IMG/VR virus record: IMGVR_UViG_3300029555_000004
DNA length: 64,000 nucleotides
Origin: a virus
Strand: one strand, 5' to 3'
The notes under the pieces are model-generated. The model did no database searches, was not told the DNA's origin, and worked only from the letters and a program-made list of their open reading frames with translations. The stretch's first letter is position 1. Each line of letters opens with the position of its first letter. The translations under genes and the position numbers were made by a program. Positions 18,317 to 60,450 of this stretch are shown here, piece by piece.

Positions 18317-18337
18317 TTTACAACCCTCCAATATTTA

Positions 18338-18363: not shown

Positions 18364-18364
18364 T

Positions 18365-18733: not shown

Positions 18734-18751
18734 GTTTAAGCCTCCTTTGCT

Positions 18752-18779: not shown

Positions 18780-18786
18780 TCGAAAT

Positions 18787-19428: not shown

Positions 19429-19457
19429 TTGACATTTAGATCGCAAAAAGTTACATT
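19429..19457 (+). promoter_or_regulatory. promoter of the HTH gene
   Basis: TTGACA-N17-TACATT. Confidence 0.5.
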
Positions 19458-19488
19458 ATATATAGAAATAAAACAGGAGGAAAGAAAA

Positions 19489-19740
19489 ATGCTAGAGTAT
19501 AAAATCGATGTAATAAAAGAACTTTCAAATATTGGTATAAATACAACAGTTGCAAAAAATACCGGGATTTTTGGACAGGCTACAATGAAAAAATTTAGGG
19601 ATAGAGATACTAATATATCTCTTGATAACCTTAATCGGCTTTGCGCAGTTCTGGAGATGCAGCCAAGAGACATTTTGAAATATGTAGAAACAGAAAAAGA
19701 TAGATCAGATTATATAAATATAATTCACAAAAAAGAGTGA
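19489..19740 (+). CDS. helix-turn-helix transcriptional regulator (XRE/Cro-like)
   Basis: ISLDNLNRLCAVLEMQPRDILKY motif; AGGAGG RBS. Confidence 0.7.
   Translation: MLEYKIDVIKELSNIGINTTVAKNTGIFGQATMKKFRDRDTNISLDNLNRLCAVLEMQPRDILKYVETEKDRSDYINIIHKKE
19725..19740. promoter_or_regulatory. operator O2 TCACAAAAAAGAGTGA
   Basis: Second copy of the TCAC-N8-GTGA site, overlapping the stop codon of the HTH gene. Confidence 0.55.
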
Positions 19741-25666: not shown

Positions 25667-25738
25667 TGGGCTATCGCCAAGTGGTAAGGCCGTGGAATTT
25701 GACTCCACAATTCGTTGGTTCAAATCCAACTAGCCCAG
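25667..25738 (+). tRNA. tRNA-Gln (anticodon UUG)
   Basis: Hand-folded cloverleaf: acceptor TGGGCTA/TAGCCCA, anticodon arm GTGGA-ATTTGAC-TCCAC, T-arm GTTGG-TTCAAAT-CCAAC; no encoded CCA. Confidence 0.9.
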
Positions 25739-25951
25739 TTTGCAGTATTTAATATGCTGTAAAGGATTTTAAGCTTTCATAAGAAACACCTATAGCCTTC
25801 TAGCCTAGATGGGGCTGATTAAAGGGACTTCAAATATCCCGGAAGGCGTATCTGAAGTATCAGGAGTATTTCAGAAAACCTTTGTTATAGTTGGTGGTTA
25901 AGAACTGTAACAGTGCCAGTTTGGTTACCAGTATTGCCAACTGGTATCTCA

Positions 25952-26024
25952 GGAAGCTTAGTTCAGCGGTAAGAGCAACGGCCTCATAAGCCGTAAGTCC
26001 TGGGTTCGAATCCCAGAGCTTCCA
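25952..26024 (+). tRNA. tRNA-Met (anticodon CAU; elongator or Ile2-type, not initiator)
   Basis: Acceptor GGAAGCT/AGCTTCC, anticodon arm ACGGC-CTCATAA-GCCGT, T-arm CTGGG-TTCGAAT-CCCAG. Confidence 0.9.
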
Positions 26025-26373
26025 TTTCTTCTAAATGCCATTCATCCGTAATATGGGTGGAAAAAACTTCCAGTTGAGCGTGTGGATCAGGTAAATTATA
26101 GGTGCGATACGGCGCAGCCTAAATGGATCTGGTTTCCAAGCTGGAATGCATCTTGGAGTTAAAGAAATCAGCGCAGCGCACGCTGATTAAAGGAGTTTTC
26201 AAAAGATGCGAACCATAAGCCATTAAAGTTGTGCATAAAAATACTCGTGGAGCATACCACGGTTATCAAAAAGCCGCCAGGGTTGCCAGTAAGCGTACCG
26301 CAAATAAAGAAAACTGGATAGTGGAAAGCATAACACGATAAACCTATTGCTAACCCGGTTTTTCCGGGTTATT

Positions 26374-26445
26374 CGGAAAGTGCAAGTAACTGGGAACGGC
26401 CTGGTCGTAGACTAGGTCTTAATGGTTCGAATCCATTCTTTCCGT
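26374..26445 (+). ncRNA. tRNA-like RNA with degenerate D-arm (anticodon-position GUA)
   Basis: Perfect acceptor CGGAAAG/CTTTCCG and T-arm AATGG-TTCGAAT-CCATT; arm CCTGG-TCGTAGA-CTAGG; no pairable D-stem. Confidence 0.4.
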
Positions 26446-26446
26446 T

Positions 26447-26555
26447 CCGTATAGTGGCGAAATATGTAGACGCTATTGTGGTAGCATAGGTTTCAACCCA
26501 CAACTTAGGTGACCTAAGTCGACAGCATGATAGGTGTAAATCCTATCCTATACGG
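26447..26555 (+). ncRNA. oversized type-II tRNA-like RNA (~108 nt)
   Basis: 8-bp acceptor CCGTATAG/CTATACGG, Leu-like D-arm TGGCGAAATATGTAGACGC, variable hairpin CTTAGG-TGA-CCTAAG, T-arm ATAGG-TGTAAAT-CCTAT; anticodon region non-canonical. Confidence 0.35.
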
Positions 26556-26588
26556 ACGTTTGGCGTGTTGAGTGATAACACACCTGAT

Positions 26589-26725
26589 TGAAAAGTGGCG
26601 GAACTATTGACGGTGATGAATCCGATACAATAGAAAGGCAGACGCAGAGGATAGTACATCATAATGGGTGAGTATGTGTCTTAGGACATGGGATGTACAT
26701 AGAAGTTCAAATCTTCTCTTTTCAA
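26589..26725 (+). ncRNA. 137-nt RNA with tRNA-like acceptor/T-arm minihelix
   Basis: Acceptor TGAAAAG/CTTTTCA 7/7, T-arm AGAAG-TTCAAAT-CTTCT, D-arm-like TGGCGGAAC...GCAGACGC split by a CTATTG/CAATAG hairpin; no 7-nt anticodon loop. Confidence 0.35.
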
Positions 26726-26948
26726 TTCTATCTACCAAGTGTAGATTGGAAATCTGACTTTAGCATAGCTATTGTTAGTTCTCGCACATAAATGAGGATT
26801 TGTTTGTGTGCGTTCGTGCAGGCATATAGACGCAACTCACTAGCGATCTTGTGCAAAAACTTTTTAGAGAGATAAGACCAATGCCCGTGAGGAGTGATAG
26901 TCGGGGATTCTAAAAAAATCATCTTGTTTAGCGTTTGAGGATGAAAAA

Positions 26949-27020
26949 AGAAACATAGCTCAGTGGTAGAGCAATGATATCCAATATCATGTGACACAGG
27001 TTCGATTCCTGTTGTTTCTA
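26949..27020 (+). tRNA. tRNA-Trp (anticodon CCA)
   Basis: Acceptor AGAAACA/TGTTTCT, D-arm GCTC-AGTGGTA-GAGC, anticodon arm ATGAT-ATCCAAT-ATCAT, T-arm ACAGG-TTCGATT-CCTGT. Confidence 0.9.
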
Positions 27021-32678: not shown

Positions 32679-33101
32679 ATGATGACTACAGCTCAATATT
32701 TACGCCAGATTGAAAATTATGATAACAGAATCAAAAATAAGCTTATCGAAGAAGAACAGCTCAGTTCTCTTTCCACAAGTGTATCTGCAATTCCTGTTGG
32801 AGAAAAGGTACAAACTTCTGTAAAACGTGATCCAATGGGAGATATGGTTGCAAAGATATTTGATCTGCGAGAAGAGATTTCAAAAATGATATCCGAATTT
32901 TTACAAAAAAAACAGGAAATAGTCCGAACCATAGAACAGGTTGAAGACCCGTTGCTATACAACATACTATTTAAGCATTATGTTGAGTACAAATCTTTGG
33001 TTCGTATCGCAGATGAGATGGGATATTCCGAAATACATATGAAAAGAATGCACTTAAAAGCCATAGCAGAAGTAAAAAAGATAAAAGGTTTTGAAAGATG
33101 A
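32679..33101 (+). CDS. DUF1492/sigma-70 region-4-like late transcription regulator
   Basis: N-terminal YLRQIENYDNRIKNK, C-terminal HTH LLYNILFKHYVEYKSLVRIADEMGYSEIHMKRMHLKA. Confidence 0.6.
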   Translation: MMTTAQYLRQIENYDNRIKNKLIEEEQLSSLSTSVSAIPVGEKVQTSVKRDPMGDMVAKIFDLREEISKMISEFLQKKQEIVRTIEQVEDPLLYNILFKHYVEYKSLVRIADEMGYSEIHMKRMHLKAIAEVKKIKGFER

Positions 33102-33142
33102 TACTAAAGTATACTGAATGATACCACCAATATGTGTAAAAT
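33100..33142 (+). promoter_or_regulatory. conserved late box, copy A
   Basis: GATAC-N15-GATAC around AGTATACT, then TATGTG-TAAAAT; near-identical at 44890 and 59955. Confidence 0.6.
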
Positions 33143-44889: not shown

Positions 44890-44933
44890 GATACCATAAT
44901 ATACTGAATGATACCAACTAATTATGTTATCAT
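44890..44933 (+). promoter_or_regulatory. conserved late box, copy B
   Basis: GATACCATAATATACTGAATGATACC ... TATGT-TATCAT; weaker hairpin AATGCG/CGCATT + T6 at 44962-44994. Confidence 0.55.
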
Positions 44934-47268: not shown

Positions 47269-50200
47269 ATGGCTGACAATACCATTGATACCCTTGATAT
47301 ACAGATTAGCAGTAGTACAGAAAAAGCAGTACGTGCGCTGACTAATCTTTCAAATAAACTTACAGAAGTTAATTCCGCATTAAGCGGAGTTAATACAAAT
47401 GGACTGCGTAGTTGTGTAAGGGAACTTGGAAAACTAAAAGAACTTGATATAGGGAAAATGACAAGCATTGCTGATGGAATTGGAAAATTCTCAAATTCCA
47501 TAAAGACAATGGGCGGAGTAGATTATAAAGGCTCTGGTCTGAATGCAGTTATCAACTCAATCAACAGGCTTAGCCAGATTGATGTTAGTGGATTTGATTC
47601 TGGAAAACTTGGAGAAATAATCCATAAATTAAGCAATTTGGCAGAGATTCCAGATGTATCTTCCGGTGTTAATCGTTTTGTTAATTCAATGGCTAGATTA
47701 GCCAATTCCGGTGAATATATTGCGAATGTATCAGCTGAATTGCCTGGGCTTGGAAGAAATCTTAAATCAATTGTAGAGAGTTTTACGAGCGTTGGCGATA
47801 TATCTGAACCTGTGAATAGGTTAGTTCAGTCTATTGCACAATTGGCAAGCTCTGGAAATAAAATCGGACAAACATCAAGCCAACTTGGAACACTAGCAAA
47901 GGAAGTATTATCTTTCTTCGATGTGATGAAAACTGCGCCTAAAATCAGCGAAAACACTGTAAGAATGACAGAAGCTTTGGCACATTTAGCTACTGCAAGT
48001 GGGAAAATAAATAAAGTCACAAATTCTCTTACGAATTCATTTTCGAGATTATCAAATGCCACAAATGGACTTGGAAATGCAGGAAGAAAATTATCTTCCA
48101 TGATTGGCTCTGCAAGCTCTGCACTAGCTAATTTTGGAAATACCGCAAATGTAACCACAAGGAAGACTGGTTCATTAACTTCACAGCTTGCAGGATTATA
48201 TGCAAAATTTTTTACTGTGACAAGAGGAATTAAAGCACTTTGGAATTCTGTAAAGTCTGCATCTAATTATGTTGAAACATTGAACTATTTCAATTCTGCG
48301 TTCGATCAAGTTACTGATGGATTAGATATCAGCAAGTGGCAGAATGCAGGAGTAAAATCCGCAGAGGAATATGTTGGTTCTTTTGAAAAACGTGCAAAAG
48401 AACTTACAAAAAAAATGACTGGATTTGAAGTATCAGATGCAGGAGATCTGACACGTATATCTGGTGGCAGTCTAGGTCTTAATCCAAACGACACCATGAA
48501 TTATCAAGCTACTTATGCGCAGATGGCATCATCAATGGGGGCAACAGCAGATGCATCAACTAAGGTTTCACAAGCTTTAACAGAAATCGGATCAGACCTT
48601 GCTTCTGTAAAAAATCTTGAATTCAACGATGTTTGGAATGATATGGCTTCTGGCATAACCGGAATGAGCAGGGCACTTGATAAATATGGTATTAATATCC
48701 GTGTAGCAAATTTACAACAGGAACTTTATAATCTTGGAATTGACGCTACTGTATCAAGTCTAAGCCAGTCAGATAAAGCTATATTAAGAACAATTACAAT
48801 ATTGAATAGTTCTAAATATGCATGGGCTGATTTGGCTTCAACAATTAATCAACCAGCCAACCAGGTTCGTATGTTGAAATCTAATTTCGAAGCACTTGGT
48901 AGAAGTATCGGAACATTGTTCCTCCCTATTGTTGCAAAAGTACTTCCATATATTAACGGTCTTTTTATGGCATTGGAAAGAGCTTTTTCTTGGCTCGCAA
49001 AACTACTTGGCATTAAGCTATCGGATTATGTATCTTCAACTGGAAAAGCTTCAGTCGATATGGGAGATATTGCAGACAGCACAGATAATGCTGCATCCGG
49101 GCTCGACAATGCAAACGACAATGCGAAGAAATTACAAAAAACTCTTTCTGTTCTTTCCTTCGATGAATTGAACCAGTTGAATGATAACAAGACATCAAGT
49201 TCAAGTGGAAGCTCGGGCAGCGGGGCTCCGGGAAGTGCCCATATACCAGAACTGGACGCTGCTTTCGATAAAGCACTTTCTGATTATCAAAAAGCATGGG
49301 ATCAAGCATTTGCAAATGTTGAGAATAAAGCGCAAACTGTATCTGATAAGATTATCAAGGCATTTAAACAAATCAGAAAGAATGCAAAGCCAACCACTGC
49401 CGCAATAAAGAAGCTTTATAATGAAGGTCTAAGCAGACTAGGAAATTTTTCGATTAATGCTTTGAAAAATTTGTGGAAGAATTACCTCCAGCCAATCGGT
49501 AAATGGTCATTATCAAACAACTCAGGATTTCCAAGATTCTTTAACATTACAAATGATTTGCTGACAAAAATCAACTGGTTAAAGCTCCAAACTTCTTTAG
49601 AAGGATTGTTTACTATGCTCCAAAAGCCAACACAATTTGTTTGGACGGGACTTATGGATTTTTACGAGCATTTTCTCGTTCCAGTCGGAACTTGGACGAT
49701 GAACGGCGCAATTCCACAATTAGTTGATGCGTTGACCAGTTTCGGAAACAACATTCATTGGGAAGAACTTAATAAATCACTGAAAAATTTCTGGGATGCA
49801 TTGGCTCCATTTGCAAAGAATGTAGGACAAGGCATTGTGGATTTTTATAAAGATTTACTTAATGTCGGAGAGAATTTCATCAATTCAACTGTTCCTGGAG
49901 GTCTAAATTCTATCGCAGAAGCAATAAAAAATATAAGTCCCGAAACAGCACAAGCTATAGGAAAGAGTCTCGGCCAAATTTCTTTGGCGATTCTAGGATT
50001 CAAAGGATTAACCTTTATTGGTGGAATCATTGGAAAAGACAGCCCATTAGGAAAAGGACTTTCTTTACTGGCAAAACATCCTTATGCGTCAATGGCACTT
50101 GGCATCGGTGGAATCGTACTTGCGCTTGATAATTTCGGAGTTATTGATGTTGACTGGGAGTGGATTTGGAGCAGTATTGACCGTGTAAAAACCTCAATAC

Positions 50201-52209
50201 AGAATTTTATTGATAAGGTTGATTGGAATGCTGTTGGAACTGCTATTGGAAATTTATGGTCTGCATTCCAACCATTTGCAGAGGGATTTGCAGATGCGTT
50301 GATTACCGGGCTTGAAGGAATAATTAATATCGGAGCGGATTTAATTAACGGTATTGCAAATGCAATTAATTGGCTGGCTGAAAAATTAAGTGGAATTGAT
50401 CCAGAATTTATAAAACAAGTTGGTGCTGCATTCGGAACATTGTTTGCGATCAAAATAGCCAAAGATATTGCCACCGAAATCTTTTCCTTTGCTAGCGGAA
50501 TCGGTTCATTAGCTTCAAAACTTTTAAATTTCCCACTTGATACCGCATCTTCTCTTCCCACTATCATCGGTGATATTGGTGGAGCAGCGGAAACGGCTGG
50601 AAATGGCGGGTTTACTACACTTGCAGAAAAGATAAAAAATCTCGGTGATGTCGCACAAACAGCTGGTGGACAATTCCAAGGATTTTGGGGATACGCAACT
50701 AATTTAGGCGCAACTGCATTTGTCATGGAAGGACTTGGACAGGTAAAAAAAGCTATGGACTTTAAAGACTCCACAGCTGACGCATTCAACGATTTTGAAG
50801 TTGTTAGAAAAGCATTAAAAATCCTTGAAGACCAAACTGGAATTTCCGGAGATAAATTTATCGGTCTTGGCGGTGATTTAAAAAATGTGAAAGACAATGC
50901 ATTTGATTTTGATGGACAGCTTCAAACCGTAGAAACATCACTTGAAAATCTTGGAATTTCTTCCGATACATTTAAGCAAGCATTAAAACAGGCAATGGAA
51001 GAATCCGATACTTCTACAAATTCTCATGTAAGTAATATTAATGAATATATCGGTACGATGGGGACAGAATTTGATAATGCGAAATCTGCATTAGAAAGAC
51101 TTTCAAATCAAGCGGTAATCACTCCAACGCAGTTTGATGAATTAAGTGCTGTCCTTCAGCAACAAGAATCATCTGGTGCAACAGCCAGAGCCGCATTCCA
51201 AGCCTTGATGGATAAAATGGCAGAGATGGGAATTGACACAGGAAAAGTTATTAAAGCTTTTTCAGAAGATGTTCCAAAAGCTTCATCAACAATGAGCAAA
51301 TCAGTGGAAACAGCTACGAAATCCATTTCTTCAAAATCTAAGACTGGTTTTGGAATAGCCAGTGCAGCTGTAAGCACAGCAATGGCTGGAATGAAAAAAA
51401 GCACAGAAAGCACAATGCCTTCCATTTGGTCAAAGATAAAGAACACGAATGATGATGTTGAAACCAACTCTAAAACCAATTGGGGAAATTCTGCAAGTGC
51501 TGTATCGACAGCCCTCGGAACCATGGACACTGATACAAGAAATGTAATGGGTAAGGTTATGACAACCATTCAAAGTTATTGGTCTTCCGTTTTGATCAAT
51601 ACAAACCAGATTTGGGAAAAGGCTTCTGGCAAGGTTGATACAGAAACCGAAAACATGAAGACTTATACAGAATCTAACTTATCTGGTATTTCAGATTATA
51701 TCACAAGTCTGTTCAAAAATGATTTAACATCAATGGGTAGGGAAACTGCACAATCTTTCGCCAATGGTATGAAACAAGTTCATCTACCAACATTAACATA
51801 TCGAATCTCTGAATGGAGAAAGCATAACCTCGGAAACGGAAAAACCAGTTCTACACCAGTTTATAAGCCTAATTGGTACGCCAAAGGTGGTCTTTTTAAT
51901 GGCGCACAGGTAATTGGTATCGGTGAAGCTGGTTCTGAAGCCGTTCTTCCTTTGGAAAATCCACGAACCATGAAGAAGATCGCGGACAGCATTGTTTCCA
52001 GCTCAGACGGAAGCATGGGACTTACAAAAGAAGAAATGGCAAAAGCAGTAGCCCAGGGAGTTGCAATGGCAATGAGTATGAACAGCGGAAACAAGAATCC
52101 GCAGTACATTATGAACAGTATTATTCTGGACGGAAGCGAGATTGCAAAAGCAGTAACAAAAGCCCAAAATGATACAGATAGCCGTTTCAAACCGTCCCCG
52201 GCATATTGA
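47269..52209 (+). CDS. tape measure protein (1646 aa)
   Basis: Length, position, Ala/Ser/Gly/Asn-rich helical repeats; AAGGAGGG RBS before ATG 47269. Confidence 0.9.
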   Translation: MADNTIDTLDIQISSSTEKAVRALTNLSNKLTEVNSALSGVNTNGLRSCVRELGKLKELDIGKMTSIADGIGKFSNSIKTMGGVDYKGSGLNAVINSINRLSQIDVSGFDSGKLGEIIHKLSNLAEIPDVSSGVNRFVNSMARLANSGEYIANVSAELPGLGRNLKSIVESFTSVGDISEPVNRLVQSIAQLASSGNKIGQTSSQLGTLAKEVLSFFDVMKTAPKISENTVRMTEALAHLATASGKINKVTNSLTNSFSRLSNATNGLGNAGRKLSSMIGSASSALANFGNTANVTTRKTGSLTSQLAGLYAKFFTVTRGIKALWNSVKSASNYVETLNYFNSAFDQVTDGLDISKWQNAGVKSAEEYVGSFEKRAKELTKKMTGFEVSDAGDLTRISGGSLGLNPNDTMNYQATYAQMASSMGATADASTKVSQALTEIGSDLASVKNLEFNDVWNDMASGITGMSRALDKYGINIRVANLQQELYNLGIDATVSSLSQSDKAILRTITILNSSKYAWADLASTINQPANQVRMLKSNFEALGRSIGTLFLPIVAKVLPYINGLFMALERAFSWLAKLLGIKLSDYVSSTGKASVDMGDIADSTDNAASGLDNANDNAKKLQKTLSVLSFDELNQLNDNKTSSSSGSSGSGAPGSAHIPELDAAFDKALSDYQKAWDQAFANVENKAQTVSDKIIKAFKQIRKNAKPTTAAIKKLYNEGLSRLGNFSINALKNLWKNYLQPIGKWSLSNNSGFPRFFNITNDLLTKINWLKLQTSLEGLFTMLQKPTQFVWTGLMDFYEHFLVPVGTWTMNGAIPQLVDALTSFGNNIHWEELNKSLKNFWDALAPFAKNVGQGIVDFYKDLLNVGENFINSTVPGGLNSIAEAIKNISPETAQAIGKSLGQISLAILGFKGLTFIGGIIGKDSPLGKGLSLLAKHPYASMALGIGGIVLALDNFGVIDVDWEWIWSSIDRVKTSIQNFIDKVDWNAVGTAIGNLWSAFQPFAEGFADALITGLEGIINIGADLINGIANAINWLAEKLSGIDPEFIKQVGAAFGTLFAIKIAKDIATEIFSFASGIGSLASKLLNFPLDTASSLPTIIGDIGGAAETAGNGGFTTLAEKIKNLGDVAQTAGGQFQGFWGYATNLGATAFVMEGLGQVKKAMDFKDSTADAFNDFEVVRKALKILEDQTGISGDKFIGLGGDLKNVKDNAFDFDGQLQTVETSLENLGISSDTFKQALKQAMEESDTSTNSHVSNINEYIGTMGTEFDNAKSALERLSNQAVITPTQFDELSAVLQQQESSGATARAAFQALMDKMAEMGIDTGKVIKAFSEDVPKASSTMSKSVETATKSISSKSKTGFGIASAAVSTAMAGMKKSTESTMPSIWSKIKNTNDDVETNSKTNWGNSASAVSTALGTMDTDTRNVMGKVMTTIQSYWSSVLINTNQIWEKASGKVDTETENMKTYTESNLSGISDYITSLFKNDLTSMGRETAQSFANGMKQVHLPTLTYRISEWRKHNLGNGKTSSTPVYKPNWYAKGGLFNGAQVIGIGEAGSEAVLPLENPRTMKKIADSIVSSSDGSMGLTKEEMAKAVAQGVAMAMSMNSGNKNPQYIMNSIILDGSEIAKAVTKAQNDTDSRFKPSPAY

Positions 52210-52225
52210 TTTTTGACTGATTGTG

Positions 52226-52339
52226 TGGTATAATTTTTTTAATGAAGAAGTACACACGGTCTTGATTTTTGAGCCGCTAAGAAGAAATTAACATTTCTCA
52301 ATTTTGAGGAATTTTTATCTTACTTGGCGGCTCTTTTTT
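52226..52339 (+). promoter_or_regulatory. extended -10 promoter followed by branched terminator
   Basis: TGGTATAAT at 52226-52234; stem GAGCCGCTAAG/CTTACTTGGCGGCTC (52271-52333) then T6. Confidence 0.5.
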
Positions 52340-52372
52340 ATTTTATCCATCAATATAAGGAGGAATGGAAGA

Positions 52373-53062
52373 ATGGGAAATGAAGTTTTAGTAACAAGCG
52401 AACAGACACCTATTGAGATTGCACTTGGGATTGACGAAGAAGGCATGACTACTGCAAGAAAACTATATTCATTTTTAGAACTTGCACAGGGACAATTTTC
52501 AAGATGGGCGAAAACAAATATTATCGACAATTCATTTGCGGTAGAAAATGAAGACTATTGGGGGTTCGACATTGATGTCGAGGGTAATAAAACTGTTGAT
52601 TATAAGATAACTGCCCATTTTGCCAAAAAACTTTCAATGCTATCAAAATCTGAAAGAGGAGAACAAGCAAGAAATTATTTTATTGGTTGCGAACAATCCT
52701 TAAAAATTGCTTTTAAAAAGCAGCGTGCAGCAGAACTTGAACGAGCCAAAGGAATAGCAGTAAGACAGGCATTGACAAAGGCAATCCAGCAATCTTCTGA
52801 AAATGAAAGAATGCACGGACATGCCTATTCTACATATACGGACGTTATTTACAAGTCCATATTTGGCAAAAACGCCAAGCAACTAAGAGAGGAATTCGGA
52901 ATCACAAAAAAAGAAAGTATGAGAGATTATTTTTCAGAAGAAGAGTTGGTGAAAGTTCAGAACGCAGAAATGCTTGTAAGTGCGTTGGTCGGATATGGCT
53001 GGGGGTATAACGAAATTAAAGAATTTATTCTGAATAAAGGAATTAATAAAATTGCGGCATAA
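52373..53062 (+). CDS. AntA/AntB-type antirepressor-like protein
   Basis: FSRWAKTNII...EDYWGF...DYKITAHFAKKLSMLSKSERGEQARNYFI; AAGGAGGAA RBS. Confidence 0.6.
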   Translation: MGNEVLVTSEQTPIEIALGIDEEGMTTARKLYSFLELAQGQFSRWAKTNIIDNSFAVENEDYWGFDIDVEGNKTVDYKITAHFAKKLSMLSKSERGEQARNYFIGCEQSLKIAFKKQRAAELERAKGIAVRQALTKAIQQSSENERMHGHAYSTYTDVIYKSIFGKNAKQLREEFGITKKESMRDYFSEEELVKVQNAEMLVSALVGYGWGYNEIKEFILNKGINKIAA

Positions 53063-53152
53063 ATTTTGATCTTTTAGACAGCTCGCATTTAAAATGAGGT
53101 CTGGAAATGTTCGATTTAAAATAGAACCTTACAATGGGGAGGGAAAGCAAAA

Positions 53153-53368
53153 ATGTCATATAAAAATTATTGCGTTGTAAGCAAAGAAGTGCTTCATAAT
53201 AGAAATATTTCCCTTGAAGCAAAGGGAATATACGCTTTAATGATGAGTGTTGGCAAAGATAATTTTAATGTAAAGGAATTATATGATCTTTCAAAAGAAG
53301 AAATAAATGTTATTGATAATGCGATAAATGAGTTAGAAAAACTCGGTTACGTAACTCTTGAAAAATAA
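53153..53368 (+). CDS. small winged-helix/HTH protein
   Basis: ISLEAKGIYALMMS...AINELEKLGYVTLEK pattern. Confidence 0.4.
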   Translation: MSYKNYCVVSKEVLHNRNISLEAKGIYALMMSVGKDNFNVKELYDLSKEEINVIDNAINELEKLGYVTLEK

Positions 53369-53500
53369 TTCGGTAAAATCAGTGGGCTAGGTTGGCCGCC
53401 GAAAAGCGTAATTCCATGATACGTCTGTCCACTGTTTTTATAAATCATGGGTCTGCGACAAGAAAGTAGTCACGCATTAACGACATGGAGGTTATCTAAT

Positions 53501-54670
53501 ATGAATTCTGAAATCAGAGAAATATCCCAAGAAGAAATAAAAGCGAGAGTAGCGTTTCTTTCATCCGCAAAATGTAATCATACACCACACAAATATATTG
53601 ATATTGCTGGTGGATTGATTGAGGGTACGCTATTATCAAGAATTTTATATTGGTTTTCTGAGGATAAAAATAAAAGAAGAAAAGTGCGCATTTTTAAAGA
53701 CGGCCATTATTGGATTGCAAAACAGAGAAAAGATTGGCAAGAAGAAATTAGAATTACAGAACGCCAATACGATAAGGCAATTAAAGAACTGAAAAATAGA
53801 GGGTTTGTTGAACTCGCAAAATATAAGTTTAATTCCATGCCTACAGTACATATTCGCCCATTGTGGGAAAATATCAATAAGGCTGTTGCTGTTTGGGAAA
53901 GTGAACTTGAAAAAGAAATTGTTTCCGAATTTCAAAATGAAGCAAACGGGAATAACGAAAAATGTAATTCCCAAGGGAATGACGAAAAATGTAATTCGGG
54001 AATTACAGAAGGAAGCACTTCTTTAACATTACCTACTAACAATGATTATCATAATAACAATGATTACTTTCAAGAGAAAACAGAACCAGACTTTATTGAT
54101 AATAAAGAAAAAAAGACTTTATCTTATACAGATAAAGATAATCAGACTTCTGCTCCTAATAATTATAATAAATTAAATATATATAATATACCTCCTAGAA
54201 CCAAGGAGCAGAAAGCCAACCGCTATAATTTTAGGAACCAATCATCTCTCTTAGATTATAAAGACGAGGATGTTGAGAAATTGGTAACCGAAATATACGA
54301 AAGCATTTACGGAGCCAAAGAGAATATTTTTGAAGACCATGACATTTGCTTATCTATATTTTTAATTAAGGAGTTTTTTAAGAAATATCAAAAGTACCGT
54401 GAAGAGAAACATCCGATGGTTACACAAAGCCAAGCTGAAAATATTCTGAAAATGATACGCAATCCAGATACAGATATGGCAAAAGATGATTTGGTAGACG
54501 ATAAAGAAGAACCACTATTCTATCTTGACATGATGGAGGAACATTTTAAGACAAAGTGGGGGAAAAGAAATGGCGGAGATTTTGATTATAGAATCATGTT
54601 ATTTTTTAAGGACACCACACAAAATATGTTATATCAAAGAGTGAAACAGAAAAGGGAGGACACATTATGA
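53501..54670 (+). CDS. putative replication-initiator-like wHTH protein
   Basis: GTLLSRILYWFSED...YWIAKQRKDWQEEIRITERQYDKAIKELKNRGFVE; internal 27-bp tandem repeat. Confidence 0.4.
   Translation: MNSEIREISQEEIKARVAFLSSAKCNHTPHKYIDIAGGLIEGTLLSRILYWFSEDKNKRRKVRIFKDGHYWIAKQRKDWQEEIRITERQYDKAIKELKNRGFVELAKYKFNSMPTVHIRPLWENINKAVAVWESELEKEIVSEFQNEANGNNEKCNSQGNDEKCNSGITEGSTSLTLPTNNDYHNNNDYFQEKTEPDFIDNKEKKTLSYTDKDNQTSAPNNYNKLNIYNIPPRTKEQKANRYNFRNQSSLLDYKDEDVEKLVTEIYESIYGAKENIFEDHDICLSIFLIKEFFKKYQKYREEKHPMVTQSQAENILKMIRNPDTDMAKDDLVDDKEEPLFYLDMMEEHFKTKWGKRNGGDFDYRIMLFFKDTTQNMLYQRVKQKREDTL
53948..53999. repeat. 27-bp tandem duplication with palindromic ends inside the rep-like gene
   Basis: GGGAATAACGAAAAATGTAATTCCC / GGGAATGACGAAAAATGTAATTCGG. 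Confidence 0.7.
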
Positions 54671-55299
54671 AAAGAATCAAAGCACTACTGGCAACCATTA
54701 TCTGTATTTGCGTTATCACAGGGCTAACAGGCTGTGCAGCGAATGACGATTACATGAATGACGTGAAAGGAAATCTTTCTGGTAACAGCTACACAATCTA
54801 TACCTACGACAACTACGGTCAAAAGGTTATGACTACCACTGGGGACAAGATCAACATTGCCGGGAATAAAACCAAATCCAAGGGCTACGATAGTGAGGGA
54901 AATGAAACAACCAGCTACGATGTATCTTCCGTCATTACAATTCTGATTGACGGTAAAGAAATTGAAAGCTGTGGTGATACTTGTATTTTTGAGCAAAAAG
55001 GATTGAAGCCAGAGGTTGATTTTACCCAGGAGGATATAATTAGCCATTCAACTGGGAAGATTTCAGAGAACACATACATAGCCGGGATTGTGAATTATTA
55101 TAAAAATTATTTCGGGAAATCTAGGGTTGTAGTAATAAAATCTCAACTCGGGCAACCGATAGCCGCATATTCTGGTGACGAGGTGTTCTGGAAAATCCCG
55201 GACGATCTGCCTAAAATGACAAAGCTAATGATTGACGGAAAAGCTCTTTATATCCACAGGGCAAATTTCCAGATTATTGATAAAGAATTACTGCAATAA
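54667..55299 (+). CDS. lipoprotein
   Basis: Signal peptide with lipobox LTGC (MKRIKALLATIICICVITGLTGCAAN). Confidence 0.7.
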   Translation: MKRIKALLATIICICVITGLTGCAANDDYMNDVKGNLSGNSYTIYTYDNYGQKVMTTTGDKINIAGNKTKSKGYDSEGNETTSYDVSSVITILIDGKEIESCGDTCIFEQKGLKPEVDFTQEDIISHSTGKISENTYIAGIVNYYKNYFGKSRVVVIKSQLGQPIAAYSGDEVFWKIPDDLPKMTKLMIDGKALYIHRANFQIIDKELLQ

Positions 55300-55406
55300 A
55301 ATAGCCAAATTCGTCTTAAAACCTCTTACCAGATAAAATATAGGCACAAGACAAGAAAATTGAAATTTGAACAAAGAAATCAACTAATTGTGGAGAATTA
55401 AAACAT

Positions 55407-55739
55407 ATGAGCCAAATAGGAACAGAACTTCCAACAGAATATTCAGACCGTTTCGATAAATTACGACAGAATAGGGTTGAGGTAAGCTTTTACAAGTATG
55501 GTACGGCAAAGGATAACTTCGGGGAGAAGTTGGTAAACGCCTTGGAATCCCACGATATGTGCATCAAAAAGTATCGTGAGACTGGGAATACAGAATATCT
55601 TTGCGATGCAGCAAATTATCTCATGTTTGAGTTTATGTATCCACAAATTCAAGGCGCATACTTCAAGGCAACAGACAGCGGAGAAAGTGCCGGAGTTGCC
55701 GGAACACCGATTAATCAGCTGAAGGAGAAGTGGTATTAA
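55407..55739 (+). CDS. hypothetical protein
   Basis: ORF track. Confidence 0.5.
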   Translation: MSQIGTELPTEYSDRFDKLRQNRVEVSFYKYGTAKDNFGEKLVNALESHDMCIKKYRETGNTEYLCDAANYLMFEFMYPQIQGAYFKATDSGESAGVAGTPINQLKEKWY

Positions 55740-55762
55740 CGAAAAGGAGATGTAAAAATATA

Positions 55763-56050
55763 ATGAACAGACCATTATTTGAGCCAGGGGATATTGTACA
55801 GCACTTCAAACGAGAAACCATCAAGGAGCCACACAACAACGAATATTTGTATGAGATTGTTGGATTCGCCCAACATACGGAAACAGGAGAAGCCCTGGTG
55901 ATATACAGGGCATTGTACGGTGGTAAGAAATTATATGCCAGACCATCAAAAATGTTCTACGGAAAAGTAGATCGGAACAGGTACCCGGAAATTCAGCAAG
56001 AGTACAGATTTGTGAAGTATCATGGAGTGCTTTACGCTGATGGACTTTAA
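55763..56050 (+). CDS. DUF1653 domain protein
   Basis: VQHFKRE...YEIVGFAQHTETGEALVIYRALYG...YARPSKMF matches the DUF1653 pattern. Confidence 0.6.
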   Translation: MNRPLFEPGDIVQHFKRETIKEPHNNEYLYEIVGFAQHTETGEALVIYRALYGGKKLYARPSKMFYGKVDRNRYPEIQQEYRFVKYHGVLYADGL

Positions 56051-56255
56051 GCAGACTTACTTTTCCATCTGGCAAGATATATGGAATCTCCACAAGAAGT
56101 ATGCCTTTATCTCAAAAGACGATATTCCCAAGTGGGAAAATCTCACCATGGAAGCAAGCCAGATTCACGATAAATACTCCGATTCTTTCGGTGCGAAATT
56201 TGCCGAAGCTCTTTTGATTGCTGTGACTGCGGAAATTGATAGAAAAGCGAAATAG
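56040..56255 (+). CDS. hypothetical protein
   Basis: ORF track (start 56022 or 56040). Confidence 0.4.
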   Translation: MDFKQTYFSIWQDIWNLHKKYAFISKDDIPKWENLTMEASQIHDKYSDSFGAKFAEALLIAVTAEIDRKAK

Positions 56256-56317
56256 TGCTTCCAGAATACGTCCCAAGGTGGTACAATATGGGTATCAAAC
56301 TAAGGAGGGGGATATTT

Positions 56318-57820
56318 ATGGCACTGATTAAATGTCCAGAATGCGGCAAGGAAATAAGTGATAAAGCGGCAAGCTGCCCGAACTGTGGATTCCCGATAAC
56401 ACAGGGAAATGCAACACAGGAACTGCCACAGAAGCAAAAGGAATACGACATTGAGATGTTGGATTCTATGAGAATCAAGGCTTCAAAAGCGAATATTGAG
56501 GTTTACTACAAAGGAAATTTGTTACTTGAAGCAAATCCTATGGATTTTGTATTGAATTATGATAAGGAAGAACCAGACGATTTAGGGAGAGTACAGTTGA
56601 AAGTTGCTTTTTCAATTCCGAAATACGCAAAGCCTTTCAAAATTTGCTTATCAACAGGTTCTTCCGCATATGAACAGGCAAAAGAATTTACAACAGAGAT
56701 TGCGGAGCGGTACTTCAAAAAACAATATGTTGTTGAATGGTATATGTTAGACAAGAGTGTAATGGATAATTGCGACAGGGGCGAAGCAAACAAGGCCAGA
56801 ACAACTATTGAGAATATCGAAAAACCTAAAACATATTCTGCACCAAAACCACAGTACACAACACAGCCGACAGCTACCAAGAAAAAAGGGGGATGCGCAA
56901 ACTATTTTGGTTTTATCTGCCTTGTGTTTATTCTAATTGGCTGGTATTCATCTAAAACAGAGAAAACAGCAGATACATCCAAAACACAGACGGAAAAATC
57001 CAGTAGTTACGAAAGAAAAGCAACTCCTACAGTAGAAGAGAAAAAACAGAATGTGGCTCCAATTACTTTTGATGATGAATTACAAACATTTAATTCTGGT
57101 GAATATTCTTATATCACTGACAGCGATTTATATAAATATGCAGTCAATATGAGCGGAGCTAAAATTTATACTGTAGCAACAATAAGTGAGATTAAAGACA
57201 ATAAGGTGCAAGTTACTATTGGTGATAAATACATGATGAGTAATTTTAATGTATCTGATAGTAAATTGTATGCAAAATATGAAAGCGGTCTTAAAGATGA
57301 TGATGTGGTTGCTATTCTTGGAACAGTATCAAATGTAGATTCATGGGGATTTATGGGAGATTCCATAAATTTAGAGAATTGTATGGTATTCGCCAAAGGA
57401 GATGAAGCTAAAAACTACAAAAAGAATGCTTCAGATGATAGTTTATCACAGTATTTTGTAGTGACAGAAGAAGTGGCAAATTCAAAAGAAGTTTCAGAGG
57501 ACGAATACAAGGCACTTTGCCAAACATTGGACTATAATGATATATTGAGAAATCCTGACAGTTACGATAAAAAACATTGTATTGTCTCTGGAACAATAGA
57601 TCAGTCATTAGAAGGAATATTCGGCGGATATACGTTGTATATTGTTGACGGAAACGGTAATAAATGGGATTGTTCATATAGCTATGAGGATGGCGAAACA
57701 CATTACCTAGAAGGAGATTGGGTAACCGTATACGGAACTTGTAGCGGAACATTAAATTCTACAACACTTCTTGGGAAACAAGTTACATTGCCAAGTATAG
57801 ATGTTAAATACATTAACTGA
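56318..57820 (+). CDS. zinc-ribbon membrane protein
   Basis: N-terminal CPECGKEISDKAASCPNCG, one TM (YFGFICLVFILIGWY), large C-terminal domain; AAGGAGGGGG RBS. Confidence 0.6.
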   Translation: MALIKCPECGKEISDKAASCPNCGFPITQGNATQELPQKQKEYDIEMLDSMRIKASKANIEVYYKGNLLLEANPMDFVLNYDKEEPDDLGRVQLKVAFSIPKYAKPFKICLSTGSSAYEQAKEFTTEIAERYFKKQYVVEWYMLDKSVMDNCDRGEANKARTTIENIEKPKTYSAPKPQYTTQPTATKKKGGCANYFGFICLVFILIGWYSSKTEKTADTSKTQTEKSSSYERKATPTVEEKKQNVAPITFDDELQTFNSGEYSYITDSDLYKYAVNMSGAKIYTVATISEIKDNKVQVTIGDKYMMSNFNVSDSKLYAKYESGLKDDDVVAILGTVSNVDSWGFMGDSINLENCMVFAKGDEAKNYKKNASDDSLSQYFVVTEEVANSKEVSEDEYKALCQTLDYNDILRNPDSYDKKHCIVSGTIDQSLEGIFGGYTLYIVDGNGNKWDCSYSYEDGETHYLEGDWVTVYGTCSGTLNSTTLLGKQVTLPSIDVKYIN

Positions 57821-57829
57821 TAAAAATAA

Positions 57830-57862
57830 GGCTAGGGAGAAATCTCTAGCCTTTTTATTTTT
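57830..57862 (+). terminator. intrinsic terminator
   Basis: GGCTAGGGA/TCTCTAGCC stem, 4-nt loop, T5AT5. Confidence 0.85.
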
Positions 57863-57868
57863 GAAAAA

Positions 57869-58036
57869 TGAATCATCATTTTGATGGATTTTCGGAAAAA
57901 TAACTGTCCCTCAAAATTGAAGAGCAGGGTTCTTCATTTTGAGGATCGAACGGACAAATTGACCTGCCGTAGGCTTGAATCATCATTTTGATGAACCTTC
58001 GTGATTTTCAAGATGGTTCATTCCTCATTGATGAGG
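57869..58036. repeat. 18-bp direct repeat x2 plus palindromic hairpin cluster
   Basis: TGAATCATCATTTTGATG at 57869 and 57976; 14-bp hairpin at 57909-57944; CCTCA-TTGA-TGAGG at 58023-58036. Confidence 0.7.
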
Positions 58037-58058
58037 AGTAAAAAAATATAAAAATGTT

Positions 58059-58105
58059 ATTGACTTCTAATCGACTTCATAGTATATTATAAGTAAGAAG
58101 TCAAT
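58059..58105 (+). promoter_or_regulatory. promoter bracketed by a 10-bp inverted repeat (RHH operator candidate)
   Basis: TTGACT-N17-TATATT; ATTGACTTCT (58059-68) / AGAAGTCAAT (58096-105); GACTTC x3. Confidence 0.6.
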
Positions 58106-58135
58106 ATGACTTCAAGAAAGGAGGAAATGCTAATA

Positions 58136-58330
58136 ATGAGTATCAAAACATTTACGTTAAGACTGACAGAAGAACAGCTTGATTTTGTCGGTGAGAAAGC
58201 AAAAGAAATGGGGGTGAGTAAAAACGATTATATTCGCAGGTTAATTGATGGAGATATTCGAGCAGACAAAGAGGATAAAATCTTACAGGAAATTATCGAA
58301 ATCAAGAATATGTTAAAAGCAAACAAATAA
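58136..58330 (+). CDS. ribbon-helix-helix (CopG-like) regulator
   Basis: KTFTLRLTEEQLDFVGEKAKEMGVSKNDYIRRLI; start 58127 or 58136. Confidence 0.65.
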   Translation: MSIKTFTLRLTEEQLDFVGEKAKEMGVSKNDYIRRLIDGDIRADKEDKILQEIIEIKNMLKANK

Positions 58331-58453
58331 AAAAAGGATTCCTGAACCCTAGAAAAGTCGGAACCCTTTAAGCACTCAACACACCGAAGTAGTTGATATT
58401 GTCATTATATCTCCCTTCGGTGTAATTGTAAACACCGAAAGGAGATTTTTTAT

Positions 58454-59269
58454 ATGGCAAATTTAAAGGTTATTGAAAATGAATTAGTTCCTGTGTACGA
58501 AACCGAAAAAGGAATTAAAGTTGTATATGGAAAAGACTTGCATAAAAGCTTAGCAGTAAAAACAGATTTTTCCACATGGGTAAAGAGGAGATTATCAGAG
58601 TGTGATGCTGAGGAAAAAGAAGATTTTGATCTGCTCCCCAAAATTGAGGAGCAGGTAACAGGCAGTAAACACACGATTGAATACCTCATCAAACTCGACA
58701 CTGCCAAAGAAATGGCAATGCTTGAACGCAACGACAAAGGAAAACAGGTTCGCAAGTATTTCATCCAAGTGGAAGAGAAATATAAGCAGACAGCAATCAA
58801 TATCAATCAGCTGTCACCCGAACTGCAAATGTTCAATCAGATTTTCCAACAAGTAGCTAAGACCGAACTGGAACAGAAGAAACTTGCGGAACGTGCCGAC
58901 CAACAAGAGAAGAACATGAAAACCATCATTGATACTTTCAAGGGGACGGATTCCGATGTTGGCACAGAGAAGTGGGTAAACAGATGTATTTCAAAGATTG
59001 CCGAGAGCGATGATTTCTCTTACTCATTCGGGAATAAATATGCCGCCGCCAGAAACGAAAGCTACCGCAGATTATCAGACAGAGCTGGTTGCCGATTAGA
59101 TCAGAAACTTAGAAATGCGATTTCCAGAGCTGAGGAAAGAGGTTGCACAAAAGAGCTGATTAATCAGATTAATAAACTGTCCGTAATCATGCAAGATAAG
59201 CGACTGAAAGAAATTTACATTGGTGTGATTAAAGAAATGATGATTGCATATAGAGTAGAAATTGCATAA
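58454..59269 (+). CDS. AntA/ORF6N-type antirepressor-like protein
   Basis: LVPVYETEKG...VYGKDLHKSL...DFSTWVKRRL...EYLIKLDTAKEMAMLERNDKGKQVRKYFI. Confidence 0.6.
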   Translation: MANLKVIENELVPVYETEKGIKVVYGKDLHKSLAVKTDFSTWVKRRLSECDAEEKEDFDLLPKIEEQVTGSKHTIEYLIKLDTAKEMAMLERNDKGKQVRKYFIQVEEKYKQTAININQLSPELQMFNQIFQQVAKTELEQKKLAERADQQEKNMKTIIDTFKGTDSDVGTEKWVNRCISKIAESDDFSYSFGNKYAAARNESYRRLSDRAGCRLDQKLRNAISRAEERGCTKELINQINKLSVIMQDKRLKEIYIGVIKEMMIAYRVEIA

Positions 59270-59305
59270 TTAGATTTTTACAGAGATACACAGGAGGAAA
59301 ATAAA

Positions 59306-59557
59306 ATGACAGAAAATATGGATAGAGAAGACACAATGTTTGAAGTAGAGGACACTATTGATAAAATCAAGTTTCTTGTGGATGATTTCATGGAACAGTA
59401 TGGATTTAACAGCACAGAAGAGATGGACAAAGAGAAAAGCCTTTTCTTTGCATATAACAAGCAATTTATGACAATGAAACTGTTGATTTTGAGCGATTAT
59501 GCCAATAAAGCAAGACAGAAATTTAAGGCTCTTGAATCTATGGAGCAGAAAGCGTGA
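59306..59557 (+). CDS. hypothetical protein
   Basis: ORF track; AGGAGG RBS. Confidence 0.5.
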   Translation: MTENMDREDTMFEVEDTIDKIKFLVDDFMEQYGFNSTEEMDKEKSLFFAYNKQFMTMKLLILSDYANKARQKFKALESMEQKA

Positions 59558-59561
59558 TCGT

Positions 59562-59858
59562 ATGGCAAACAGAATCCAGTTCAATGGCTTTCAGAAAAAG
59601 AGTGTGTACGCCAAGTGCAACGGAAAATGTGCGATATGCGGTAAGCCTGTCAAATTTAAGAAAATGACAATCGACCACATTATGCCGTTGTCTCGGGGCG
59701 GCACCAATGATATTAAGAATCTGCAACTGGCGTGTAAGCGCTGCAACAGCATGAAGAGCAACATGACAATGGATGATATGATGGGGCAGATTTCCGAGAT
59801 TTTGAAGTATAACCGCAAACAGAAATTGATTAGAGTGTTGGGAGGAATTGTGGAATGA
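59562..59858 (+). CDS. HNH endonuclease
   Basis: CAICGKPV...TIDHIMPLSRGGTNDIKNLQLACKRCNSMK. Confidence 0.8.
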   Translation: MANRIQFNGFQKKSVYAKCNGKCAICGKPVKFKKMTIDHIMPLSRGGTNDIKNLQLACKRCNSMKSNMTMDDMMGQISEILKYNRKQKLIRVLGGIVE

Positions 59859-59956
59859 ATTACTATAAGACAGAGATCATTAATCTCGTACAGAATTGCG
59901 ACAATAGCCACTGGCTAGAAGTGATTTATACGTTTGTAAAAAGATTATTGAAATGA
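59855..59956 (+). CDS. hypothetical small protein (33 aa)
   Basis: Read by eye; ATGA overlap with the HNH stop; its own stop TGA overlaps box C. Confidence 0.3.
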   Translation: MNYYKTEIINLVQNCDNSHWLEVIYTFVKRLLK

Positions 59957-59998
59957 TACCATAGTATACTGAATGATACTTTCACCGTATGTTATAAT
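59955..59998 (+). promoter_or_regulatory. conserved late box, copy C
   Basis: GATACCATAGTATACTGAATGATACT ... TATGT-TATAAT (perfect extended -10 TGTTATAAT). Confidence 0.65.
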
Positions 59999-60022
59999 AT
60001 AAAATCATAATAAGCAATTTTT

Positions 60023-60055
60023 AAAGCGTTTACCTTTCGGGGTAGGCGCTTTTTT
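60023..60055 (+). terminator. leader terminator after box C
   Basis: AAAGCGTTTACC/GGTAGGCGCTTT 12-bp stem, 6-nt loop, T6. Confidence 0.8.
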
Positions 60056-60084
60056 CGTGCGTAAAAATACATGAGGGTTAGCAT

Positions 60085-60450
60085 ATGGCAGAAGTATTTC
60101 TTAAAGTGGATGGGGTAGCATTGCCCTGTCCTTCTTCTTTTACATGGGGATTACAGGATATATCGGCATCAGAATCCGGCAGAACAGATGATACGACCAT
60201 GCACAAAAACAGAGTTGGACAGAAACGAAAGCTGTCTGTAGGTTGGAATGGCCCAGATTGGGACACTGCTTGCAAAATTATACAGGCAGTAAATCCAGAG
60301 TACATACAGGTCACATATCCAGACTTGCTGTCTGCGAACAAGCACGAAACCAGAACATTCTATGTTGGTGACAGGGAATCCCCTTTTAAGTGTTGGTGGA
60401 TAGGCAATGAGCGCATGGAAGGACTTAAATTTGATTTTATCGAGAGGTAA
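60085..60450 (+). CDS. putative distal tail protein (small)
   Basis: Position immediately before the tail-tip protein; no clear motif. Confidence 0.4.
   Translation: MAEVFLKVDGVALPCPSSFTWGLQDISASESGRTDDTTMHKNRVGQKRKLSVGWNGPDWDTACKIIQAVNPEYIQVTYPDLLSANKHETRTFYVGDRESPFKCWWIGNERMEGLKFDFIER

Follow-up and report, generated by a model that had tools for sequence, protein, structure and literature searches.

In the immI region of phage P22 the genes follow the order sieA-mnt-arc-ant, and ribbon-helix-helix (RHH) repressors control the antirepressor gene ant. T4-like phages exchange genes at short conserved regulatory cassettes, and the c4 RNA of P1/P7 and the CI RNA of P4 are immunity RNAs. Within P22, sieA adjoins mnt and lies between gene 16 and gene 9, in a region that varies among relatives and spans only 836 bp in phage L (PMC10883804). 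A family of exclusion lipoproteins has Ltp of phage TP-J34 as its prototype (PMC3952083), and both Ltp and gp15 of HK97 are reported to act on tape-measure-dependent DNA entry (PMC3952083; PMC10883804). Here we describe a locus to be set beside these systems: the interval between the tape measure gene and the gene for a distal tail (Dit)-like protein in IMG/VR record IMGVR_UViG_3300029555_000004, a 64,000-nucleotide (nt) stretch of viral DNA hereafter called the window.

The window is one long segment of a phage genome on the + strand, in which the tape measure, the largest open reading frame (ORF), comes after the major tail protein and chaperone ORFs. The phage is temperate, since it encodes a large serine recombinase (Table 1). 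We think it probable that the interval is a clade-specific, permanently occupied accessory-gene hotspot, which splits the tail operon of an ~80-kb temperate gut siphophage.

Occupancy and cassette shuffling between tape measure and Dit

The interval was compared with its counterparts in relatives, namely 80 IMG/VR contigs of ~80 kb each with a Dit 98-100% identical, giving 81 loci. Counts out of 58 refer to the genomes with a complete interval and counts out of 57 to the close relatives with a complete interval. In all 57, the gap from tape measure to Dit measures 5.4-9.8 kb, and five others exceed the 10 kb fetched; no empty junction was found among the 57. The left flank is well preserved, with 88-100% identity over the final 100 amino acids (aa) of the tape measure across the 57 relatives.

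The initial annotation had held that the tape measure normally adjoins the distal tail gene, and that an island here splits a junction which is tight in related phages. Both statements are borne out by nine outgroup phages: Enterococcus phage phiFL3A (Dit identity 37%), four gut-virome contigs (53%) and four contigs or records that include MT835477 (77%). In phiFL3A and the remaining outgroups the Dit homologue lies directly behind the tape measure, and 10-17 nt separate the tape measure stop from the DUF6711 start, compared with ~8 kb here. MT835477 (84.7 kb) is syntenic with the window and carries several homologues of island families elsewhere, at 68.7-78.5 kb and ~17.8 kb. A Blautia metagenome-assembled genome, with a Dit 82% identical, presents a diverged island of ~5.5 kb at the same position, so the hotspot predates the close clade, and Blautia is the probable host. 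A megablast search against GenBank phages returned short unannotated fragments only.

Clustering of the ORFs across the intervals gave 76 clusters, arranged in 56 distinct gene orders in the 58 genomes. The order of the slots is constant, and within each slot alternative, unrelated cassettes are found. Linkage between cassettes decays within ~1 kb, the mean r2 of cassette presence falling from 0.095 for cassettes less than 1 kb apart to 0.019 for those more than 4 kb apart, and all four presence/absence combinations occur in 308 of 351 cassette pairs. The coverage profile shows short linkers and a few anchors common to 52-76 of the 81 loci, with intervening genes mostly present in 6-49. The widely shared pieces are the tape measure end together with 52210-52329, 54653-54670, 55296-55395, orf77, 59272-59311 and the HNH gene. 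Conserved linkers flanking variable cassettes are the pattern expected of homologous exchange at conserved boundaries.

The interval thus forms an ordered array of ~15 slots, each with one of several unrelated cassettes or none, and we propose that homologous recombination between co-circulating phages would swap cassettes at the conserved linkers and anchors. The exchange points would be the 3' end of the tape measure with its promoter and hairpin, the RNA leader of the Rep-like gene, the 55.30-55.40 kb linker, orf77, the 59.27-59.31 kb linker, the HNH gene and late box C, the third copy of a box described below. Double-strand breaks made by HNH and T5orf172 nucleases may stimulate the exchange. 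The cargo would serve phage-versus-phage competition and lysogeny control, while terminator-like sites would insulate the array and the third late box would re-express the downstream tail genes.

The nucleases could also be given a larger part. The edge slots across loci contain AntA, Bro-N, P22_AR_N and Rha N-terminal domains, often fused to ORF6C, T5orf172/MUG113 proteins, and four HNH families. With four HNH and two T5orf172 families in these slots, the interval might be mainly a product of homing endonucleases that invaded beside essential tail genes and dragged their neighbours along as cargo useless to the phage. Nuclease genes do sit at recombination boundaries in phages, where they mark points of exchange (PMC10448857), and one locus has a TnpB-like ORF of the IS605 type, judged by eye. 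The other HNH and T5orf172 cassettes of the interval are sporadic; the HNH gene on the right, however, is near-fixed (76 of 81 loci), and three parts of the interval, the central block of exported proteins, the RHH-antirepressor module and the RNA-Rep module, each make up a coherent functional unit that recurs in other settings. We consider homing as the main origin of the interval unlikely. The TnpB-like ORF (369 aa, IS200/IS605-type) lies in the island of relative L047, at interval coordinates 3439-4548, and begins MLKAYKYRLYPN.

The initial annotation had read the interval as a replicon-like island and, as one option, a hitch-hiking element. In this alternative the interval would be a hitch-hiking replicon, or the descendant of one, lodged in the late operon of its helper, with an initiator and an origin of its own, which could excise or over-replicate on induction in the manner of helper-embedded phage-inducible chromosomal islands (PICIs). 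The likeness to PICIs covers several points: these elements are sited in the helper late genes and co-oriented with them, as the island is here, and the Bro-N network zone, immunity RNAs and replication zone of Gram-negative PICIs have counterparts in the Bro-N-network proteins, the regulatory RNA and the Rep-like gene with internal repeats (PMC10111431). The RNA family also adjoins integrases in satellite-like islands of E. coli, and the junction is empty in the outgroups. On the other hand, Pfam and PHROG scans gave no integrase among the island genes of the window or the scanned cluster representatives of the relatives, and the window's island genes include no Phage_AlpA or recombinase match and no primase. 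Nor are there att-like repeats, the longest word common to both borders being 9 nt, a length reached by 37% of shuffles. No empty site occurs in the 57 close relatives, the genes assort almost independently and do not form a coherent unit, and the Rep cassette is missing from about a quarter of the loci. The repeats at 57.87-58.04 kb, proposed earlier as a candidate origin, recur in only 1 other of the 81 loci and are not linked to the Rep cassette. We regard a replicon, present or ancestral, as very improbable.

Excision through the c1 genes that are duplicated at both ends in some relatives was considered and rejected, as the copies are ~75% identical and their longest exact match is at most 18 nt. 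The further option of the initial annotation, a moron or defence island, comes closest to the accessory-gene hotspot that we favour, although PADLOC recognised no known defence system. For annotators, an initiator-like gene accompanied by repeats inside a phage is not in itself evidence of a second replicon.

The int-alpA leader RNA and the Rep-like gene

The initial annotation missed three small ORFs (orf110, orf77 and orf83) and a structured RNA of the int-alpA family. In Rfam, int-alpA is an orphan motif, recorded from islands of Proteobacteria that are linked to integrases, and the E. coli copies sit behind a tyrosine integrase in satellite-like islands. In the window, it lies between the small winged helix-turn-helix (wHTH) gene and the Rep-like gene, and not beside integrase or alpA genes. 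The RNA stands directly upstream of the Rep-like family in 45 of 82 sequences (the window and 81 loci), irrespective of the gene before it; the gene behind it in those 45 belongs to cluster c10 or c17, or is an HNH gene followed by c10. The same position, directly upstream of Rep homologues, is found in four unrelated prophage loci (L082, L085, L086 and L088).

The RNA consists of an outer stem with a U-run, inside which lie two hairpins. The second of them carries a loop with two complements downstream: site 1, just behind the U-run, and site 2, which comprises the first Gs of the Rep-like gene's Shine-Dalgarno sequence and the three bases before them. At least five loop/site sequence classes are present here. 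Class A, to which the window belongs, has loop CCAUGAU with AUCAUGG at site 1 and CAUGGAGG at site 2; class B has CCUUGAU with AUCAAGG and CAAGGAGG; class C, CCGUAAU with AUUACGG and UACGGAGG; class D, CUCCGA with UCGGAG and CGGAGGU; and class E, CCUCCAA with UUGGAGG and UGGAGGU. In classes A-C, changes in the loop go together with changes in the three bases that precede GGAGG, and in classes D and E the match is to the Shine-Dalgarno sequence itself. In prophage L082 the loop CCUACGA faces UCGUAGG, twice, and the E. coli copies combine loop and site 1 as ACCUUA/UAAGGU or as GCCUUA/UAAGGC. Complementarity of the loops was counted by script; MAFFT sets the loop classes out of register. Compensatory changes in the helices, noted by eye and with no formal pair count behind them, include GGU/GCC to GGG/CCC in helix P2 and GCGUA/UACGU to GUGUA/UGCAC and GUCUC/GAGAU in helix P3, and P1 also varies.

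Since linkage alone cannot yield complementarity, an RNA-RNA contact is strongly indicated. We favour translational control of the downstream gene, given that the RNA is shaped like an intrinsic terminator and that the ribosome-binding site is the second of its targets. The pattern suggests control that is specific to each class, exerted either by a pseudoknot switch in cis or in trans by the terminated RNA, as with P1/P7 c4. The Rep-like cassette would then be a portable unit of structured leader RNA and winged-helix protein, in which the loop would pair both with the site that follows the RNA's terminator-like stem and with the gene's ribosome-binding site, setting translation class by class.

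A more extended proposal, which we put forward tentatively, is that int-alpA is a class-specific riboregulator of the c4/CI type, whose terminated form would act on the ribosome-binding site of an initiator or regulator gene and thereby set copy number or immunity. One gut phage population would then harbour five or more orthogonal classes, and the RNA-Rep cassette would be a control and replication module of satellite type, traded through the hotspot. Like the c4 RNA of P1/P7 and the CI RNA of P4, int-alpA is a structured RNA located upstream in the same transcript as its targets, has a loop complementary to sites that include a ribosome-binding site, and undergoes compensatory changes between classes. 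It differs from them in belonging to RF02996 rather than RF01695 and in using one loop instead of two, and here action in trans is only one of two candidate modes. The base-pairing model is offered for an RNA motif for which we found no published function, and the motif is extended to low-GC gut phages (Rfam may already list it outside Proteobacteria).

Several observations on related RNAs stand apart from this argument. In the E. coli loci L104 and L105 (~1500-1560), AUCACAAAAU takes the place of the U-run after the outer stem, so termination is not universal in the int-alpA family. A second int-alpA copy in L082 (7539-7610) and L085 (2930-3000) precedes an 81-aa gene upstream of the Rep homologue; small prophages thus carry two int-alpA RNAs, one ahead of each of two neighbouring genes. 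The E. coli island L089 holds isrK and two C4 antisense RNAs (5068-5773) within the span of annotated Icd-like genes, and two Pistol ribozymes (2890-2955 and 3169-3234, - strand) lie in the early region of the small prophage L086, which has a Rep homologue. Pfam gave no match for the genes downstream of the E. coli int-alpA copies or for the neighbours of the Rep homologues. Weak Rfam matches to MicC, L20 leader, Atu_C9 and CsrC over terminator regions were discarded, being far below their gathering scores.

The product of the Rep-like gene, Rep389, was taken to start behind GGAGG because its closest database homologue also has 389 aa. In the AlphaFold model the winged helix (residues 1-148) and the helical domain (250-389) are confident and residues 149-225 are disordered. 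A Foldseek search of the model against the PDB retrieved generic winged helices, with DnaD-N and RepA_N among numerous MarR-type regulators, all at E 0.012 or worse, and for this reason cannot separate an initiator from a regulator. HHalign detects homology with the alternative cassette c10 along the entire protein (E 7e-20).

The initial annotation had seen here a rep-like wHTH protein with internal tandem repeats, additional to the replication module of the phage at 12-13.5 kb. That module is genuine, with a protein of the Phage_rep_org_N family, and an initiator-like gene does exist beside it; the repeats amount to just two 23-nt copies. An initiator role of Rep389 is plausible but unproven. 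If it is one, the cassette might provide a second functional origin and initiator for the phage itself, for another replication mode or host background, with the rest of the interval as unrelated cargo. The arrangement of winged helix, disordered linker and helical domain is typical of replisome organisers, and PHROG gave weak matches to initiator families (phrog_428, E 6.5e-6, and another at 4.9e-4). In small prophages, the stretch from a cro-like gene to the terminase has the Rep homologue as its largest and only large gene. Divergent homologues keep the direct repeats at the same codon position with different sequences, iteron-like but in two copies only, and a tightly controlled leader would suit a dosage-sensitive gene. 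Against a second origin stand the lack of any Pfam or NCBIfam match, the generic regulators returned by the fold search, the small number of repeats, and a profile comparison with the phage's own organiser in which no relation was detected (E 0.16). Moreover, 6 of the 58 genomes do without both the cassette and the related c24 gene. We hold this second origin to be doubtful, and retain the reading of the Rep-like gene as one exchangeable cassette of the hotspot.

Cargo genes and predicted transcription signals

Every item in the ORF list of the initial annotation was recovered where it had been placed, on the + strand: the AntA-like gene, the small wHTH, the lipoprotein, the DUF1653 gene, the zinc-ribbon membrane protein, the second AntA-like gene and the HNH endonuclease, as were the promoter match and terminator-like hairpin after the tape measure, the terminator-like hairpin behind the zinc-ribbon gene and the cluster of hairpin and direct repeats (57869-58001). 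Its two flanking antirepressor paralogs, on the other hand, have just the N-terminal domain in common, with 31% identity across 119 aa.

In the left slots, the alternatives to AntA1 are c22, which has no Pfam match, HNH genes (c24 and c26) and T5orf172 (c32). The small wHTH protein occurs in 8 of 58 loci and resembles PHROG DnaD-like and initiator families in their N-terminal part. The central slots across loci are filled with DUF5052 and Ltp-domain lipoproteins, Big_2 and further signal-peptide proteins, a small membrane protein and the zinc-ribbon membrane protein; the last is found in 20 of 58 loci and is replaced in its slot by Ltp lipoproteins or Big_2 proteins. In 16 of 58 loci there are lipoproteins with an Ltp domain (cluster c20 or c49, the latter assigned by reading its sequence). 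We propose that this lipoprotein and membrane block most likely stops DNA entry of superinfecting phages. The anchor gene orf77 has a homologue in MT835477 with 38% identity at ~17.8 kb on the minus strand, so orf77 is not a tail gene. The island proteins gave nothing with NCBIfam but a weak zinc-ribbon-domain match for the 521-aa protein (22 bits against a cutoff of 130), and PDB sequence searches with Rep389, DUF5052, the zinc-ribbon protein and DUF1653 gave no useful match.

In the right part, the RHH protein matches NikA-like (Pfam E 2.8e-8) and RHH_1, and GACTTC half-sites and a palindrome extend over its promoter and start codon. The gene and its half-sites are thus as initially described, and the autoregulation attributed to it may follow from them. 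By analogy with Arc and Mnt of P22, the RHH protein would repress, and so gate, the downstream antirepressor, and the other DNA-binding proteins of the AntA/Bro-N network would join in lysogeny control and competition. The order RHH-antirepressor-small ORF-HNH recurs in the unrelated small prophage L082, with identities to the window of 68% for RHH, 58% for the antirepressor N-domain and 43% for HNH.

As for transcription, the linker at 52206-52345 is common to 57 loci, and its hairpin might represent a small RNA or else a leader subject to regulation. A box of 25 nt, GATACCATAGTATACTGAATGATAC, is found with at most 2 mismatches at 33100-33124, 44890-44914 and 59955-59979, with 0 expected. It lies upstream of a 519-aa ORF at 33118, presumably the portal gene, of the tail gene block, and of Dit. 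Outgroup MT835477 lacks the box, which probably serves as a late promoter or an activator site. The initial annotation had proposed that late box C restarts the tail genes; as the third copy of the box, it appears to restart the split operon behind the array.

Several points weigh against the hotspot as we have drawn it. Mosaicism among these phages extends to the tape measure and tail genes, so a generally recombinogenic population explains part of the variability, and the sampling is narrow, with nearly all relatives from one IMG/VR dataset (3300045988). In the island proteins of the window PADLOC found no defence system, giving generic HNH similarity and weak matches of the AntA1 C-domain to candidate families. 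The window's own island has no Ltp-domain protein, and only export signals and slot-mates point to an exclusion role for the DUF5052 and zinc-ribbon proteins. The promoters and terminators of the island are consensus matches and strong hairpins only. Finally, if box C were a simple promoter, there would be no ready explanation for the terminator-like hairpin that separates it from Dit; this hairpin may point to antitermination or RNA stabilisation.

Elsewhere in the phage, a DUF4417 protein follows the serine recombinase (14233-16691), and then comes a short minus-strand cluster with reversed GC skew (17900-19200), probably the lysogeny module. A DUF4317 protein (10926-12047, E 3e-137) is encoded directly upstream of the replisome organiser gene, and three tRNA genes (Gln-TTG, Met-CAT and Trp-CCA) lie within 25667-27020. 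In the close relative L030, a FuFi-1 RNA (Rfam RF02986, 139 bits; 19432-19619, - strand) is found ~9 kb downstream of Dit, which is beyond the end of the window.

Table 1. Coordinates of the features discussed, in window numbering
Feature	Position	Strand	Remarks
Replisome organiser of the phage	12070-12999		Pfam Phage_rep_org_N, E 9e-37
Large serine recombinase	14233-15999		Only recombinase of the window
Major tail protein	begins 45841	+	Siphovirus-like tail module
Tape measure (left anchor)	47269-52209	+	ORF opens 47074; likely start ATG 47269 behind GGAGG
Interval from tape measure end (52209) to Dit-like start (60085)	52210-60084	+	12 ORFs, all +
Conserved linker	52206-52234; 52271-52345	+	Extended -10 promoter match; long hairpin and U-run, -32.7 kcal/mol, z = -5.8
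AntA1 (variable slot A)	52373-53062	+	Pfam AntA E 1.9e-13; C-terminal phrog_2657 domain
Small winged-helix protein, 71 aa (variable slot B)	53153-53368	+	HTH_36 E 2e-4, below Pfam cutoff
int-alpA RNA (Rfam RF02996)	53380-53450	+	47.7 bits against gathering score 35.8; full model positions 1-71
Site 1, AUCAUGG	53444-53450	+	Complement of loop CCAUGAU, just 3' of U-run
Site 2, CAUGGAGG	53484-53491	+	Second complement of loop; overlaps Shine-Dalgarno of Rep-like gene
Rep-like protein (Rep389), 389 aa	53501-54670	+	ORF opens 53447; winged helix, disordered linker, helical domain
Two 23-nt direct repeats	53948-53997	+	27 nt apart; start of linker-coding part of Rep-like gene
AT-rich tract	54157-54188	+	Within Rep-like gene
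DUF5052 lipoprotein	54667-55299	+	Pfam E 4e-75; signal peptide, lipobox LTGC at residue 20; 38/58 loci
Intergenic linker between variable slots	55296-55395	none	At least 80% identity in 74/81 loci; flanking genes 43-48
orf110	55407-55739	+	No family match (Pfam, PHROG); 36/58 loci
DUF1653 protein	55730-56050	+	Pfam E 4e-17; 29/58 loci
orf77 (anchor)	56022-56255	+	Only near-universal cassette, 57/58 loci
Zinc-ribbon membrane protein, 521 aa	56255-57820	+	N-terminal Zn_Ribbon_1 E 1.3e-7; one transmembrane segment 212-232; C-terminal domain ~290 aa
Intrinsic-terminator-like hairpin ending central block	57828-57853	+	11-bp stem, then U-run
Segment with direct repeats and hairpin	57869-58038	none	Two 26-nt direct repeats, each palindromic, and strong hairpin; 1 other of 81 loci
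Promoter match	58060-58088	+	Upstream of RHH gene
Operator-like palindrome	58097-58113	+
RHH gene	58106-58330	+
AntA2, antirepressor-like	58454-59269	+	Pfam AntA E 3e-19; phrog_373 E 7e-38
orf83	59306-59557	+	No family match
HNH endonuclease, 98 aa (right-hand anchor)	59562-59858	+	Pfam HNH E 6e-17; ORF opens 59499
Late box region	59949-60056	+	Late box C 59955-59979; -10-like TATAAT; hairpin and U-run 60024-60056
Small Dit-like DUF6711/phrog_1194 protein, 121 aa (right anchor)	60085-60450	+	phrog_1194 E 5e-36
Large tail protein, >1182 aa	60454-64000, past window end	+	phrog_6616, E 1e-193

Comparison with known systems

If the hotspot is read correctly, a recombination hotspot with frequently refilled slots can keep a tail operon permanently divided. 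Phages of an abundant gut genus would then carry, in little space, a natural collection of candidate genes for superinfection exclusion, antirepressors and nucleases, and the RNA-Rep cassette of the locus adds a testable mechanism for the int-alpA RNA motif.

The central block resembles the morons and superinfection-exclusion genes found beside tape measure genes, such as HK97 gp15 and TP-J34 ltp, in that genes flanked by promoter and terminator (here, promoter-like and terminator-like sites) lie between late genes which are adjacent in relatives; Ltp-domain lipoproteins, as in TP-J34, do occur in the slots of related loci. In contrast to these systems, the exported proteins of the window, candidates for exclusion, are DUF5052 and zinc-ribbon proteins, not Ltp, and ltp of TP-J34 sits in a lysogeny module and not in a tail operon.

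The right part is closest to the immI region of P22. In both cases accessory genes lie within a late structural cluster, between DNA-delivery and distal tail genes, and a membrane exclusion protein (a candidate one here) is combined with RHH repressors that control, or here would control, an antirepressor. The region described here is far larger and more combinatorial, occupies the tape measure/Dit site of a Firmicute-type siphophage, and adds nucleases and a Rep-like cassette. The likeness is one of arrangement, with no homology established to SieA, Arc, Mnt or sar RNA.

Taken as a whole, the interval shares with the variable hotspots of P2/P4-like phages and the hyperplastic regions of T4-like phages conserved flanks around highly variable cargo at one position. 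Unlike those regions, it yielded no known defence systems with PADLOC, its linker sequences are different, and its slots strictly follow one order. Comparable hotspots are known as a class; what is unusual here is the site inside the tail operon, the strict order of the slots and the near-free shuffling of what they hold.

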